Positions 15,589 to 61,520 of a stretch of DNA of 64,000 nucleotides are shown here, in pieces. The translations under genes and the position numbers were made by a program. Source of the stretch: a virus (taxonomy: Duplodnaviria > Heunggongvirae > Uroviricota > Caudoviricetes); the IMG/VR virus record IMGVR_UViG_3300049919_000267, positions 38,379-102,378 of that record. One strand, 5' to 3'. The stretch's first letter is position 1. The number at the start of each line of letters is the position of its first letter. The notes under the pieces were generated by a model. It was given only the letters and a program-made list of their open reading frames with translations, did not search any database and had not been told where the DNA came from.

Positions 15589-16440
15589 TTAACGAATATC
15601 AAATTTATTTAATCTTCTTCTTGAAGCTTTTGTAGATCTTATTTGTTGCTCAATTGTTTGTTTTCTTATTTCAATTTCAGCAAGAACTTTAGCTTCATAC
15701 ATTTTACTTTCGTAATAAGCCAGTTTAGTCTGTACTTGATTTAAAGTCTCATCAGATATATTATTATATATATTTTCAAAACATTTATATTTTAAATACG
15801 CTTTGATATAGTCTTTAATTCTAATATTATCAGGAACTAATTGGTACTCATTTCTATCATACTCTTTTACATAATAAACCATGTATAAAGTTCCTTCTGG
15901 GAAATTAGTGAGAAGTTTACCTCCTCTAACTTCAAAAGTTTCCATAGAGTCCGAATACATATTAAAACTATCTAGAGAACAATTATCTCTAGCATGGATA
16001 TTACCAGGTTTTAATAAATGATGACAATTAAATTTTTGAATTACTGTGCCATTTGTTTTATAAGTCACTTTTATTTCATCTGGCGCACAGAACTCAGCCC
16101 CATTACATCTTTCTCTGGTAGGAGTTACTCTGATAGAGGATTGCTCATAGTAAGACCCTGGCATTCTATAACTCATCTCTTGAGGTGTTGTTAACCATAA
16201 CTCTCTTACGGCCTCAAATCCATTAGGAAGCTTTGCTTCATAATCTTGAATAGAAAGAATATTTTCTTCTATCTTATAAGAACTTCTACCAAGCCTATCC
16301 AGACAATCTTCTGTATATGTTGGAAACAAAACATCATCTATAACACCAGTTTGGAAATAACTTCTCAGTTCTTCTTTTAACTCTGCATAGATGGGTTCCG
16401 GGCTTATGAAGTTATATTTGTAATAGTAACTTACTTTCAT
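15589..16440 (-). CDS. Hypothetical structural protein (283 aa)
   Basis: ORF track. Stop/start overlap with the downstream ORF (16437..16943), indicating translational coupling. Confidence 0.55.
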   Translation of the reverse strand: MKVSYYYKYNFISPEPIYAELKEELRSYFQTGVIDDVLFPTYTEDCLDRLGRSSYKIEENILSIQDYEAKLPNGFEAVRELWLTTPQEMSYRMPGSYYEQSSIRVTPTRERCNGAEFCAPDEIKVTYKTNGTVIQKFNCHHLLKPGNIHARDNCSLDSFNMYSDSMETFEVRGGKLLTNFPEGTLYMVYYVKEYDRNEYQLVPDNIRIKDYIKAYLKYKCFENIYNNISDETLNQVQTKLAYYESKMYEAKVLAEIEIRKQTIEQQIRSTKASRRRLNKFDIR

Positions 16441-38323: not shown

Positions 38324-38399
38324 TGGTGGTGAAAGTTGGATTTGAACCAACGACCAACAGATTTTCAGTCTGTCACTCTACCAACTGAGTTATCTCACC
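38324..38399 (-). tRNA. tRNA-Phe (GAA), CCA encoded
   Basis: GGTGAGA / TTTCACC acceptor stem, D-arm ACTC…GAGT, anticodon stem ACAGA/TCTGT with loop CUGAAAA, T-loop TTCAAAT, terminal ACCA. Confidence 0.75.
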
Positions 38400-54675: not shown

Positions 54676-54762
54676 TTTCTATTGGCTGAGAGGATTAAGG
54701 CAAGGGGTATTGAATCCCCTGACTTCGGAAGAAGTCCAAGAGTTCGAATCTCTTATAGAAAA
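54676..54762 (+). tRNA. tRNA-Ser (UGA), type II with a long variable arm
   Basis: TTTCTAT / ATAGAAA acceptor stem, anticodon loop AUUGAAU, variable arm GACTTC-GGAA-GAAGTC, T-arm AAGAG-TTCGAAT-CTCTT. The D-arm is short with a G·U pair. Boundaries are about ±2 nt. Confidence 0.6.
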
Positions 54763-54798
54763 CAAGTTTTGCTGCATTTTCCTTAGAAAAATCAGAGG

Positions 54799-56062: not shown

Positions 56063-56172
56063 TAAAAATCGGTTAGACTTTCTCTTCCAAGAAAAGTCAA
56101 GAAGCCTTCATCTCCCCAGAAGAAAGTGATTTCTTCTGGGGAAGGTGGAGGACATCTTATTAATAAAAAGTA

Positions 56173-56209
56173 AAAACCCCTAAGAATTAATTTACTTAGG
56201 GGTTTTTCT
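56173..56209 (+). terminator. Rho-independent terminator (bidirectional-looking)
   Basis: AAAAACCCCTAAG-loop-CTTAGGGGTTTTT. Preceded at 56114..56141 by a perfect 12-bp hairpin CCCCAGAAGAAA-GTGA-TTTCTTCTGGGG. Confidence 0.65.
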
Positions 56210-56232
56210 TAAGTTTTAAATACTAATTTAAT

Positions 56233-56321: not shown

Positions 56322-56924
56322 ATGTTAGAAATACAAAACTATGAATCTCTTAATTTTACAGATCATCAAATGGAGTTCATGTCTTATGCTAAAAATCATT
56401 ATGTTAAACAGTTAAAAGAAGCACAAGTACCTGAAAATGAATCTACCATTGCTATATTAAGAACTATTGATGAAATAAATACTGAAAATTTAGAAAAAAA
56501 GAAAGATGAAATGATTCCATCATGTAAAAAAGGTTGTGCACATTGTTGCTACATACAAGTTGGAATGACTTTAAGAGAAGCAAATCTTATTAAAGAGTAT
56601 GTAGATACGTTTCATATTCCAGTAGATAAAGAGAAACTTAAAATACAAGCCCAAATTGAAAATGAAAAAGAATATCTTATATCTCCAAATAGGAGATGTG
56701 TATTCTTAGGACAAAATAATCTTTGTACTATTTATGAAGTAAGGCCTTCAGCCTGTAGAAATTACTTTGTGTTTAATCCTAAAGAAGATTGCGATACATT
56801 TAATGATAAAACTACTGGAAAAACTCTGGTAAATTTTGACTTAGAATCAGTTGCACCTATCATGGCTCTTATGAGCATATCTCCAACAAATACATTACCT
56901 AGACAATTATTAAAAATATTATAA
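56322..56924 (+). CDS. YkgJ-family (UPF0153, CxxCxxCC zinc/iron-chelating domain) protein (200 aa)
   Basis: …SCKKGCAHCCY… followed by …RRCVFLGQNNLCTIYEVRPSACRNYF… (family signature C-x-FL…C-x-IY-x-x-RP-x-x-CR-x-[FY]). Confidence 0.6.
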   Translation: MLEIQNYESLNFTDHQMEFMSYAKNHYVKQLKEAQVPENESTIAILRTIDEINTENLEKKKDEMIPSCKKGCAHCCYIQVGMTLREANLIKEYVDTFHIPVDKEKLKIQAQIENEKEYLISPNRRCVFLGQNNLCTIYEVRPSACRNYFVFNPKEDCDTFNDKTTGKTLVNFDLESVAPIMALMSISPTNTLPRQLLKIL

Positions 56925-58465: not shown

Positions 58466-59260
58466 ATGGCAGAAGTAAAAATGGATCTTGCTGAACTAGA
58501 AGATATTAAAAATCAAATAGTTAAGCAAAAAAAGATAGTTTCTGAAAAAGAAGAAGTTATCAAACAAAAAGAAAAAGAACTTGCTGAAGCTTATGCTGAT
58601 AAAAGAACTGTACAAATTACTAAAACCAGTAAACCTGTACCAAGTTGGGATTTTCATGCAAATTCAATTAATAGTAGAATAGAACATTCAGATTTTTCTT
58701 ATGGAAATGAATATGTTGGTAAAATATTTTCTTTTATAAAACAAAAAGATTATATGAGACTTTCTGAAAATTCTCTTTATGAAAATATCAAAGAGACTAT
58801 TAATCAACTTGTTTTTAATATAAGTGCAAGAGGAGATATGCAAAGAAAAAATGTTCCTATAACTTATGAAGAAATTGTAACAAAAGAGTTTATAAACTTT
58901 GATGATGTACTTGGAGATCTTAGAGAAAAAGCTGAAGTAAGTTTTATTAATGAAATCAATTCTTATAAAACTAAAATTCATACTTTAGAAGGGACAGTAA
59001 GTGATCTTCAGAATAAAATTACTGATACTACTAAAGTTGCAAATAAAAAGATTGATGAAATTATCGAAAGTTATGAAACTAAATTACAAGATAATTCAGT
59101 AAAAGCTAGAAAAGAATATGAAATTCTTTCAAAAGCTTTTAGTGATTACAAAGAAGACAAAGATACCAGAAACCTTCAAAAACAGATTTTTGATCTTAAA
59201 ACAGAACTTGAAGAAGAAAGACAAAAAAAGTGGTATCAAAAAATAATAAAAAATAAATAA
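58466..59260 (+). CDS. Coiled-coil protein (264 aa)
   Basis: ORF track. Glu/Lys-rich heptads. Confidence 0.55.
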   Translation: MAEVKMDLAELEDIKNQIVKQKKIVSEKEEVIKQKEKELAEAYADKRTVQITKTSKPVPSWDFHANSINSRIEHSDFSYGNEYVGKIFSFIKQKDYMRLSENSLYENIKETINQLVFNISARGDMQRKNVPITYEEIVTKEFINFDDVLGDLREKAEVSFINEINSYKTKIHTLEGTVSDLQNKITDTTKVANKKIDEIIESYETKLQDNSVKARKEYEILSKAFSDYKEDKDTRNLQKQIFDLKTELEEERQKKWYQKIIKNK

Positions 59261-59424: not shown

Positions 59425-59811
59425 ATGAAATTAAATCAAACTCAAACAGAAGCTCTTATTGATGACTTTATTGAAAAAAATAATGATAAAGTAAAAAAAG
59501 AGTTAGAAGTTATTAAAAAATCTCCTGAATTTAAGTCACAAGTTAATAAACTTCAAAAAGCTTTAAAAAGTATTGACCCAGCAGCTTTGAAATATTTAAA
59601 ATCTGATAGTTTTGTAATCCCAGGTATTCAACATATTGAAAACTACTTGATTCAGACCTATCAATTTACATCTAAAACAAAAACTAAAAAAATTGATAAT
59701 TGGGGGAATACAAGAACAAAATACAAACAAGCCCTTACTTTAGCTTCTATTGAAAAAACTTCTATAGAAGAGTTAATAAAAGTTCTTGAAGATGTTAAGA
59801 TTTCTAATTAA
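59425..59811 (+). CDS. Hypothetical protein (128 aa)
   Basis: ORF track. Confidence 0.5.
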   Translation: MKLNQTQTEALIDDFIEKNNDKVKKELEVIKKSPEFKSQVNKLQKALKSIDPAALKYLKSDSFVIPGIQHIENYLIQTYQFTSKTKTKKIDNWGNTRTKYKQALTLASIEKTSIEELIKVLEDVKISN

Positions 59812-59831
59812 ATACTTTTAACTTTTAAAAT

Positions 59832-60232
59832 GGGTCTGACAGGCATTTGACAGCAATGGATTGGAATTATGGGTATGCAGGGAGAATGATTCTATACTTC
59901 CTTGATAAATGTGAATCAAATCTAGATGTAGAAGTATCTAACATCACCGTAGGTGCAGAAGGAAACATTGATAGCTTATTAGCTTCTTTGTCTTATTCAG
60001 TTGAGTCTGAGCTTGCTCTGGCTTAATTCACCCCCAGAACTCTATGGGTATAAATGAGAACTTTTTCTTTTGGTATATTCTTCAAATAAGAATCTACTCT
60101 GAATATTAACCTGGCTTAACAGTAAATTAGCTAAAGGCCTTTGGAGCAGTAGGACTGCTATCCTAAGCATATAAGTCAACCATAATTACTTTACAATGTA
60201 TGGACAAGGGTTCGACTCCCTTCAGATCCACC
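59832..60232 (+). ncRNA. ssrA: tmRNA (ssrA-like transfer-messenger RNA), apparently phage-encoded
   Basis: The 5' GGGTCTG pairs with the 3' CAGATCC-A-CC. The 3' end GGACAAGGGTTCGACTCCCTTCAGATCCACC closely mirrors the E. coli tmRNA 3' end (GGACGCGGGTTCAACTCCCGCCAGCTCCACCA). An internal reading frame ends …SYSVESELALA-TAA at 60024-60026, with candidate resume codons GCA at 59955 or GCT at 59982. Length about 401 nt. Confidence 0.6.
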
Positions 60233-60307
60233 TTTAAAGCACAAGAGTTACGTCCTCTCTCTTGAGGTAAGAATAGATTCTTATTCTTATCTGAACAAAG
60301 AGGTTAG

Positions 60308-60391
60308 GGGCAAGTGGTGGAATTGGCAGACACACAAACTTCGATGTTTGTTCTTAACAGAGTATAGGTTCGAATCCTATTTTGTCCACCA
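60308..60391 (+). tRNA. Type II (long variable arm, Leu/Ser-like) tRNA with an aberrant anticodon loop. Isotype unresolved; CCA encoded.
   Basis: D-arm TGGTGGAATTGGCAGACAC (Leu-like), T-arm ATAGG-TTCGAAT-CCTAT, acceptor GGGCAAG / TTTGTCC (2 G·U), terminal ACCA. The anticodon region ACAAAC-TTCGAT-GTTTGT folds as a 5-bp stem with either a 6-nt loop (UUCGAU) or an 8-nt loop (CUUCGAUG), never a canonical 7-nt loop. Confidence 0.5.
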
Positions 60392-60534
60392 GGGTTATTT
60401 CTTACACTTTCCCGTAAAAAAAGTGTCAAGTGGTGTAGGTAACTAGATAAAAAAAATCTGGTAGCCCCAAACCCCCGGAGAAACAAACTTCTCTGGGGTT
60501 TTTTATAAATCTAATACAAAACAAAACAGCAATT

Positions 60535-60828
60535 ATGAAAAGGATTAAATATTTTTTTAACAGTGCATTAATTATGGCTGGAATCTATATAATATTATCA
60601 ATACTTTTTCTTATTCTACAGTGGTATTCAAATATTGAAGCTAATATTGAATTTTATTTAAAGTATGACACTTATATACAACTTTTTAAGATTATTATAG
60701 ATATACTTGAAATAATTATTAGAGGTTGTTTTTGGTTATCTGTTGCATTATTTATGATTTACGAACTAGATAAATATGATGAAAAAGGAAATTTAATTGA
60801 TATTGAAACCAAAAAAGAAAACATATGA
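60535..60828 (+). CDS. Small membrane protein (97 aa, 2-3 TM)
   Basis: ORF track. Hydrophobic helices. Confidence 0.5.
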   Translation: MKRIKYFFNSALIMAGIYIILSILFLILQWYSNIEANIEFYLKYDTYIQLFKIIIDILEIIIRGCFWLSVALFMIYELDKYDEKGNLIDIETKKENI

Positions 60829-61520
60829 GACAAATGGAATTCAGTTCTGATGAACAAGTAAAAAAATCTTATGAGTTTCTTAATAGTTTGAATCAACCAG
60901 CTTGTGAAGGATGTAATCATGGTATAAGGATGTGCTATAATACTCCTTGTATGGGAACAGTAGAAGATTTTGAAAAACTTATAGAAGCTGGCTATGCAGG
61001 ATCTCTTATGTTAGATCATTGGTGTGGTGGACATATGAATGGTAATCCTTTTAAAGAAGATGTACTTTATTTAGCACCAGCTATAGAAAACAAACAAAAA
61101 CAAGCTGCCCCATTTATAAGATCTGGAAAGTGTGCATTATTAATTAATAATAAATGCAGTCTTCATGATTTAGGACTAAAACCTATACAAGGAAAATCTG
61201 TTTGTTGTAAACTTGAAAGAGTTTATAAAGATGAAAATGGGGAAAATAAAGCAATTGAAGAAAGATTTCTTATTCTTCATACATGGAATACTCAGAAAGG
61301 ACTGGATCTTATTGAAAAATGGAAAAAAGAAGTTAATTTTAAAACAGAAAGTGGAGATGAAGAAATAGATAAAAAAGATCCTTTTCTTTTTCTAAGTCTT
61401 CTTGTAGAACAAATACAAAAATTTGAAGAAATTGAAAAAAAAGAAAAAACAGGTGAAATGCCACTGTACACTCCACTAACAGAGCCACGAAAAATAATCG
61501 AATACACAAAACCTTATTAA
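60825..61520 (+). CDS. YkgJ-family-like Cys-rich protein (231 aa), paralog of 56322..56924
   Basis: …PACEGCNHGIRMCYNTPC… and …GKCALLINNKCSLHDLGLKP… align with …RRCVFLGQNNLCTIYEVRPSAC… of the first copy. Acidic C-terminal tail. Confidence 0.5.
   Translation: MRQMEFSSDEQVKKSYEFLNSLNQPACEGCNHGIRMCYNTPCMGTVEDFEKLIEAGYAGSLMLDHWCGGHMNGNPFKEDVLYLAPAIENKQKQAAPFIRSGKCALLINNKCSLHDLGLKPIQGKSVCCKLERVYKDENGENKAIEERFLILHTWNTQKGLDLIEKWKKEVNFKTESGDEEIDKKDPFLFLSLLVEQIQKFEEIEKKEKTGEMPLYTPLTEPRKIIEYTKPY

Follow-up and report, generated by a model that had tools for sequence, protein, structure and literature searches.

The DNA analyzed here (the window) is a 64,000-nucleotide (nt) stretch of a Caudoviricetes phage genome (IMG/VR record IMGVR_UViG_3300049919_000267, positions 38,379 to 102,378). 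On its plus strand, 75 nt beyond the 3′ end of a phage transfer-messenger RNA (tmRNA) gene, lies an 84-nt class II transfer RNA (tRNA) gene of the tRNA-Leu family whose anticodon arm cannot form a 7-nt loop. The reading favored here, to which about an even chance is given, is that of a decoding-impaired tRNA-Leu derivative that would be cotranscribed with the tmRNA, processed, probably leucylated, and kept for its tRNA body. Such a tRNA would be at best a weak, aberrant decoder. The original prediction had seen in a possible 8-nt loop the mark of a quadruplet-decoding, +1 frameshift suppressor tRNA; a dedicated quadruplet decoder is not supported by the results below.

To our knowledge, natural tRNA genes very rarely have anticodon loops of other than 7 nt, except in organelles and among laboratory suppressors. 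Here, such a gene has preserved a perfect structure despite the loss of a loop base and of the anticodon, in a lineage enriched for odd loops. If these tRNAs become charged and gain access to the ribosome, they would represent the first frame-shifting or mis-decoding tRNAs of natural phage origin; if not, phages would appear to keep tRNA bodies for nondecoding jobs, such as processing of a tmRNA operon or service as decoys. Either outcome bears on why phages carry tRNAs. For this gene by itself, the sober and most likely reading is that of a decoding-impaired derivative, and the case would become weightier should the clade-wide pattern prove functional.

The tRNA body and its anticodon loop

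The overall architecture given in the original prediction (class II, with a Leu-like D-arm, a long variable arm, a perfect T-arm, an encoded CCA, and a tmRNA as its neighbor) was borne out by the sequence and by Rfam, where model RF00005 gave the gene 41.4 bits (gathering score, 29) and aligned it with a deletion of one position in the loop. All 23 cloverleaf pairs of the model are formed, and the conserved tertiary nucleotides T8, A14, G18, G19, and the T-arm sequence GGTTCGAATCC are kept; the loop of the model, with 7 nt, U33, and a purine at position 37, is not. The Leu-type D-arm, long variable arm, and A73 of a bacterial-type class II tRNA-Leu are all present, and the variable region has 13 nt with a 3-bp stem. 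The 17-mer GTGGAATTGGCAGACAC of the D-arm was found in at least 120 IMG/VR loci; almost all are tRNA-Leu genes whose loops have 7 nt, and the anticodons of these genes among the matches listed were TAA, TAG, CAA, CAG, or GAG. Based on this 17-mer together with A73, A14, A15, G18-G19, and the long variable arm, the body is assigned to the Leu type. Bacterial leucyl-tRNA synthetase (LeuRS) does not use the anticodon, and because these identity elements are retained, leucylation of the tRNA is plausible and probable.

The anticodon region reads A-CAAAC-TTCGAT-GTTTG-T and, as had been claimed, fails to give a canonical 7-nt loop in every register. It can be drawn either with 5 bp (6 bp with A26-U44) and a 6-nt loop or with ACAAA/TTTGT pairing around the 8-nt loop CTTCGATG. 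Refolding with ARAGORN located the gene at exactly 60308 to 60391 (plus strand), again with no 7-nt loop, and labeled it “tRNA-???” with the four-base anticodon tcga, which corresponds to the 8-nt drawing. However, the register homologous to that of the orthologs described below is the stem CAAAC/GTTTG with the hexaloop UUCGAU, as read from an alignment in which the anticodon-stem pairs covary. The span from D-stem to T-stem is exactly 1 nt below that of the orthologs, and since the variable regions have the same length, the missing nucleotide falls in the loop. By nearest-neighbor energies, the 8-nt form lies 4.3 kcal/mol above the 6-nt form (a ratio of ∼1000:1 in favor of the latter), and the unconstrained minimum free energy structure from RNAfold was a 6-bp helix with the hexaloop. 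To adopt the 8-nt form, C31-G39 has to open and the stem has to shift to A26-U44, which leaves position 37 occupied by U and positions 32 and 38 joined as a C-G Watson-Crick pair. Relative to the CU[A/U]AGAA loop conserved in the orthologs, one deletion and at least two substitutions are seen, and neither UUCGAU nor CUUCGAUG contains a Leu anticodon (NAG or NAA triplet).

An indel introduced by sequencing or assembly into the loop of an otherwise ordinary tRNA had been named as the outcome that would undo the original prediction, and the anomaly in length does amount to a single base. The identical tRNA was found in Logan SRR35532964 and in JGI 3300048573, two additional assemblies that are each 100% identical to the window over their full length. 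Because the identity extends along the whole length of the assemblies, the three represent the same strain; they are independent assemblies but not independent lineages, so that an assembly artifact is excluded while no evolutionary replication is gained. The longest homopolymer in the loop is 2 nt, so an indel error at this site is unlikely, and restoring one base does not recover a Leu anticodon. Taken together, such an error is extremely improbable.

Table 1. Features of the window and of related loci (L numbers); coordinates without a locus refer to the window
Feature	Location	Strand	Basis or remark
Class II tRNA-Leu-family gene, noncanonical anticodon loop, 84 nt including encoded CCA	60308-60391	+	ARAGORN, Rfam, ortholog alignment
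Acceptor 5′ strand GGGCAAG	60308-60314	+	Pairs with TTTGTCC 60381-60387, two G-U pairs
Leu-type D-arm GTG-GAATTGGCAGA-CAC, 3-bp stem; A14, A15, G18, G19 present	60317-60333	+	Sequence
A26	60334	+	Sequence
Anticodon stem CAAAC with GTTTG	60335-60339, 60346-60350	+	Register from homology to orthologs
6-nt anticodon loop TTCGAT	60340-60345	+	Homologous register
T44	60351	+	Sequence
Long variable arm TCT-TAAC-AGA, then GT	60352-60363	+	Sequence; orthologs with equal length, 3-bp stem
T-arm ATAGG-TTCGAAT-CCTAT	60364-60380	+	Sequence, Rfam, alignment
A73	60388	+	Sequence
Encoded CCA	60389-60391	+	Sequence
Phage tmRNA, tag AEGNIDSLLASLSYSVESELALA	59832-60232	+	ARAGORN; Rfam RF00023, 57.8 bits
Intrinsic terminator-like hairpin (10 bp, 6 G-C), then T-run	60473-60504	+	Sequence scan
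Class II tRNA, Ser/Tyr-like D-arm, A73, 5-bp anticodon stem, 8-nt loop UAUUGAAU	54676-54763	+	ARAGORN
Phe-like class I tRNA, 6-nt loop CTGAAA	55308-55380	+	Rfam, 56 bits
Ortholog tRNA-Leu	L134 15793-15874		
Ortholog tRNA-Leu	L137 14993-15077		
Ortholog tRNA-Leu	L193 4670-4753		
Ortholog tRNA-Leu	L194 9923-10005		
Ortholog tRNA-Leu	L201 5307-5389		
Ortholog tRNA-Leu, UAG	L135 16172-16254		

Orthologs and compensatory change

BLASTN analysis of positions 59800 to 60500 identified no match among the INPHARED phages, and a pattern of the anticodon arm with a variable loop matched nothing in IMG/VR. The 5′-half pattern GGCAAGTGGTGGAATTGGCAGACAC returned only ordinary tRNA-Leu genes with 7-nt loops from IMG/VR and the JGI metagenomes. 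Relatives of the terminase are abundant, with ∼1,100 contigs carrying one; the tRNA gene lies 23 kb from the terminase gene, beyond the 10-kb flanks of those loci. Orthologs were sought with a CxxCxxCC-domain protein (56322 to 56924), encoded inside the tRNA array of the window, as the anchor, which led to syntenic arrays in L134 (IMG/VR), L135, L136/L137, L138/L139, L193, L194, L201, and L202.

In L134, L135, L137, L193, and L194, the order of genes is Glu … Arg(tct), anchor gene, Ile … tmRNA, class II tRNA-Leu; L201 carries the same tRNA-Leu, but no tmRNA was called. From this shared slot and order, the gene in the window is identified as the positional ortholog of a conserved tmRNA-linked phage tRNA-Leu(AAG/UAG). 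Canonical 7-nt Leu loops were present in all six orthologs, with CTAAGAA (AAG) in five and CTTAGAA (UAG) in L135. Besides the slot after the tmRNA, the window gene has in common with these relatives the 3-bp D-stem, the GAAYTGGYAGA D-loop, A73, a 13-nt variable region with a 3-bp stem, and helices held by compensatory change, whereas it differs in the loop, where the relatives have 7 nt, CU[A/U]AGAA, and it has 6 nt and no Leu anticodon.

The cloverleaf was examined in alignment A3, which combined the window gene (with one N placeholder in the loop), the six orthologs, and one paralog. Every one of the 184 cells was a standard pair (184/184), and changes on both sides were found in 18 of 23 pairs, including compensatory change in all five anticodon-stem pairs and in six of seven acceptor pairs. 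None of 500 shuffles reached this level of pairing, and sliding the 3′ partners lowered it to 43 to 51%. Approximately 40% of tRNA body positions had diverged in the comparison. As pairing is complete and compensatory despite this divergence, the alignment clearly points to structural selection on the tRNA body.

These data bear on whether the gene is a plain pseudogene, that is, a tRNA-Leu inactivated by the loop deletion and left without function, its body being intact because the event was recent. The Leu anticodon is absent, the loop has the wrong length, and the departure from CU[A/U]AGAA noted above speaks for this reading as well; moreover, the other 6-nt loops of the clade (CTGAAA, ATTGAA, and TTGGGT) resemble one-base contractions of short runs, which offers a simple mutational route. 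Yet all 23 pairs are intact, including those of an anticodon stem that has been fully replaced, and CCA, A73, and the invariant nucleotides of the T- and D-loops are kept with an Rfam score well over the threshold. The accumulation of several loop changes also argues against a very recent event. Ordinary tRNA pseudogenes, unlike this gene, lose base pairs and conserved loop bases along with the usable anticodon; here the anticodon was lost, and decay of helices or conserved nucleotides was not seen. A functionless relic is thus unlikely, although it has to be taken seriously.

Two further tRNA-like genes were observed in the syntenic arrays. In L135, the tmRNA and the canonical tRNA-Leu(tag) are separated by a second Leu-bodied class II tRNA (15981 to 16064). 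This second tRNA has a Leu-type body and a non-Leu loop, UGUUGAG (G at position 33), with discriminator G73, and was called Gln ttg by ARAGORN. L202 carries a tRNA-like gene (1715 to 1804) with an apparent duplication or insertion of ∼17 nt in the anticodon arm (TTTTATTAA repeated), which is either an assembly artifact or an insertion. Separately, class II tRNAs with a Leu-type D-arm, an acceptor near GTAAGG, long variable arms, and the non-Leu loops CTGTTTA, CTATCTC, and CTGTCCC recur in L026, L066, L106, L113, L072, and L020; this family is unrelated to the phage clade of the window. In the nearest isolate, Leptolyngbya phage Lbo-JY46, whose capsid is 25% identical, a normal tRNA-Leu(taa) lies within the part examined, the first 50 kb; this phage is too far removed to shed light on the gene.

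Decoding potential and possible retained roles

Decoding was tested on the coding sequence of the window, which covers 64 kb of the 102-kb genome. TCGA occurs 31 times, mostly in tRNA T-arms, and only two in-frame TCG-A occurrences lie in genuine genes. The original prediction had suggested looking for quadruplet or +1 frameshift sites, but on the coding strands no junction between open reading frames (ORFs) that four-base reading could bridge was found at TCGA or TCG-N. Three pairs of ORFs with TTG starts and a long overlap in the +1 frame were considered as frameshift candidates and rejected as start-call artifacts, as homologs of the downstream proteins begin at internal ATGs. TCG (15 occurrences) and CGA (11 occurrences) are among the rarest of ∼17,400 codons. 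When seven conserved structural genes were compared with those of two orthologous phages, TCG aligned with Ser in five of six comparisons and CGA aligned with Arg in both of two. The coding sequence of the window therefore neither needs nor reflects quadruplet reading or reassignment.

For the tRNA to act as a +1 frameshift or quadruplet decoder, C31-G39 would open and A26-U44 would join the stem, and the resulting loop C-U-UCGA-U-G would read UCGA; alternatively, as in SufJ, CGA would read UCG in the zero frame and then shift by +1, inserting Leu. The 8-nt drawing preferred by ARAGORN would place C32 and U33 ahead of a four-base anticodon, and LeuRS is established as independent of the anticodon. 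The clade also contains true 8-nt loops in which the extra base lies 5′ of U33, the configuration of SufJ (PMC4238358). Nevertheless, homology sets the loop at 6 nt, and adoption of the 8-nt form carries a penalty of 4.3 kcal/mol and would place U at 37 and a Watson-Crick pair between C32 and G38. All six orthologs have 7-nt loops, and in the 64 kb examined, no +1 junction at TCGA or TCG-N and just two in-frame TCG-A sites in genuine genes were found. The step from an 8-nt loop to a quadruplet decoder taken in the original prediction is thus not supported, and only a slim chance is given to this form of decoding.

The frameshift suppressors sufD, SufJ, and SufA6/SufB2 are laboratory mutants or engineered and not conserved natural genes. 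They resemble the gene studied here, as do engineered quadruplet tRNAs, in having a loop of other than 7 nt on a body charged without reference to the anticodon, and, only if the closing C-G pair opens, in the C-U-UCGA-U-G loop with U33 in place. In contrast to these suppressors, which carry a true extra nucleotide, it has a net loss of one, needs a shifted stem, has U37, and is without cognate frameshift sites in the window.

Triplet decoding with a new specificity has also to be considered, in which a leucylated tRNA would read UCG (anticodon CGA, U-U-CGA-U) or CGA/CGG (anticodon UCG, U-UCG-A-U), whether as tolerated noise or as mistranslation directed at the host. Both candidate anticodons correspond to codons that rank with the five rarest of the phage, although the probability of such a match by chance is just ∼0.1. 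The anticodon UCG would keep U33 and A37, and the Leu-bodied tRNA in L135 provides a second case with a non-Leu loop. However, the 6-nt loop is without position 32 or 38, and TCG and CGA retain their Ser and Arg meanings in conserved phage proteins. We know of no functional natural tRNA with a 6-nt loop, which also counts against triplet reading. In yeast mitochondria, a natural tRNA-Thr(UAG) with an enlarged 8-nt anticodon loop has been demonstrated to reassign CUN codons to Thr (PMC7609411). It parallels the present gene in having a natural non-7-nt loop and an anticodon mismatched to the ancestry of the body and thereby lends the idea some support, but its loop is enlarged rather than shortened, it is organellar, and its function is demonstrated. 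A triplet decoder of this kind appears improbable.

The favored reading, a tRNA-Leu derivative impaired in decoding, can be set out as follows. The anticodon loop of a tRNA-Leu would have lost one nucleotide and the Leu anticodon, and the conserved 5-bp stem, extended by A26-U44, would close UUCGAU. A hexaloop closed by C-G and without a proper 32-38 frame would be unable to present a normal anticodon, so the tRNA would decode poorly, if at all. The gene would be cotranscribed with the tmRNA, and RNase P together with 3′ processing would free the tRNA. The terminator-like hairpin, which starts 81 nt 3′ of the tRNA, probably ends the tmRNA-tRNA transcription unit; one such hairpin was found versus 0.6 expected in shuffles. 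As the body has what RNase P, RNase Z, CCA-related enzymes, and LeuRS would recognize, and as the gene lies between the tmRNA and the terminator, a cotranscribed, processed, and poorly decoding tRNA would be expected. The likeliest role would be that of an RNase P/Z processing module defining the 3′ side of the tmRNA precursor; as an alternative, the anticodon arm could have been retained as a decoy. Pseudogenes or tRNA-like processing signals (tRNA punctuation) are comparable in having an unusable anticodon while keeping the features of an RNase P/Z substrate between genes of one unit. The original prediction had also entertained a deliberately inactivated or regulatory tRNA-like RNA, which comes near to this reading; nothing was found to support “deliberately.”

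Several points weigh against this reading. The share of CTT among Leu codons is 0.28, not below that of relatives that keep tRNA-Leu(AAG), so no adjustment of the phage to the loss of an AAG decoder is visible. The searches for UCGA sites and for a second tRNA-Leu were confined to 64 kb of the 102-kb genome. What suggests a processing module is the position of the gene, and its expression, processing, and charging are predictions from sequence. A perfect body with a “dead” loop would be just as consistent with a function of the odd loop itself. Other tRNAs of the clade without a 7-nt loop keep their anticodon cores, UUGA in a Gln-like group and UGAA in a Phe-like group, which implies that such loops may still decode.

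Odd loops across the clade and the genomic setting

Within the Gln-like and Phe-like groups, the core is constant and the number of flanking loop bases varies; the tRNA studied here, unlike them, is without the core of its Leu anticodon. To place this in context, tRNAs were counted in the early-gene arrays of the clade (window, L134, L135, L137, L138, L193, L194, L201, and L202). Loops of 6 or 8 nt were found in 8 of 50 early-array tRNAs versus 5 of 851 in unrelated tRNA-rich IMG/VR loci (Fisher P = 5e−8), a frequency ∼25 times higher, and in 0 of 29 tRNAs of the clusters beside the terminase genes of the same clade.

This enrichment, and the contrast with the tRNAs beside the terminase gene, would suit an arms race over the anticodon arm, in which changes to the loop would let the tRNA evade, or act as a sponge for, a host nuclease directed at anticodon arms. 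Phage tRNAs can evade anticodon nucleases through loop mutations (PMC10264068), and several defense nucleases cut the anticodon arm (PMC13056530). The nuclease-evading tRNAs resemble the present gene in belonging to phage arrays and in differing in the anticodon loop, but they carry loop substitutions that leave the 7-nt loop and anticodon in place (PMC10264068), whereas here the anticodon was lost and the length of the loop changed, which sets the gene outside that class. Indels are not mentioned in the eLife paper on loop mutations. Pfam searches with 29 ORFs of the early region returned no match related to tRNA, RNA repair, or translation, so the neighborhood gives no pointer to tRNA repair or defense, and the candidate nuclease and host are hypothetical. 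An arms race as the origin of this loop is very improbable.

In a broader form of the idea, odd loops would be selected and not broken, the clade keeping aminoacylatable tRNAs with 6- or 8-nt loops either as natural frame-shifting or mis-decoding tRNAs or as nuclease-proof or decoy tRNAs. A small chance is allowed for this. If it is true, the tRNA described here could place Leu at codons that the phage itself avoids, UCG or CGA, and so attack host translation in a manner targeted by codon usage.

The four true 8-nt loops, UAUUGAAU, UGUUGAAU, GCUCAAAU, and AUUUCAAA, follow a scheme of two bases, U33, three bases, A37, and one base, which places the extra base 5′ of U33, where the SufJ frameshift suppressor also carries its extra loop base (PMC4238358). 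Several 7-nt loops of the clade are without U33 and have a U one position later. The window tRNA at 54676 to 54763, with the 8-nt loop TATTGAAT, was not detected by Rfam RF00005 even at an E value of ≤1. Its ortholog in L135 (7972 to 8059) also has an 8-nt loop (GCUCAAAU), and as the acceptor, variable, and T stems of the two differ by compensatory changes, the expanded loop seems to be conserved. Orthologs of the Phe-like tRNA of the window were found in L137 (7916 to 7990), L194 (1763 to 1837), and L134 (8954 to 9025); loops among them were UUUGAAC, CAUGAAA (A at position 33), and the canonical GUGAAGC. In L138 (6421 to 6495) and L139 (1977 to 2051), which derive from two different sequencing runs, a class I tRNA has the 8-nt loop AUUUCAAA. 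The loop holds UCA, the anticodon of an opal suppressor, with U before it and AA after it, and the tRNA, with its expanded loop, is a possible TGA suppressor.

The window has a G+C content of ∼30%, and the standard genetic code gives long uninterrupted ORFs. Large structural genes, encoding the terminase, portal, and major head protein (by a PHROG head-protein match), occupy the minus strand, and many small early ORFs occupy the plus strand. A Pfam Crass_capsid match was found in relatives of the phage, and capsid identity to crAss-like phages and Leptolyngbya phage Lbo-JY46 was merely 23 to 25%. The phage is a divergent Crassvirales-like phage with a genome of 102,378 bp. ARAGORN called 16 tRNAs and one tmRNA in the window.

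Around the tmRNA, the 128-amino-acid ORF on its 5′ side is an ORFan that matched only itself among 5.8 billion proteins, and the ORFs at 58466 to 59260 and 60825 to 61520 have no relatives in IMG/VR. A search for sequence beyond the window with its terminal ORF returned only the short contig L001. Matches to a tmRNA pattern in GTDB, on contigs of Pedobacter and Chitinophaga, were discarded as no tmRNA was present at those sites, and no host was inferred from them.

The phage tmRNA tags are unusually long, in the window (59832 to 60232) as well as in L134 (14982 to 15390), L137 (14505 to 14900), L193 (4222 to 4607), and L194 (8650 to 9105). The tags called in the window (AEGNIDSLLASLSYSVESELALA), L134 (GENGNIDSLLNSLSYEAEEVGAELCFA), and L137 (AEVSNYSVGVNGNVDSLLNSLSYEVKPELAYA) have the core GN(I/V)DSLLxSLSY in common. 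Just 5′ of tRNA-Arg(tct), a plus-strand segment of the window (56108 to 56215) gave subthreshold Rfam matches to His_leader (37.5 bits) and the trpB motif (37.4 bits), which may reflect a structured, leader-like RNA or have arisen by chance. Finally, among the terminase large-subunit homologs of this clade, P0036, P0115, and P0120 (∼1,080 to 1,100 amino acids) contain intein and LAGLIDADG Pfam domains (PF14528 and PF14890) and are intein-containing terminases.

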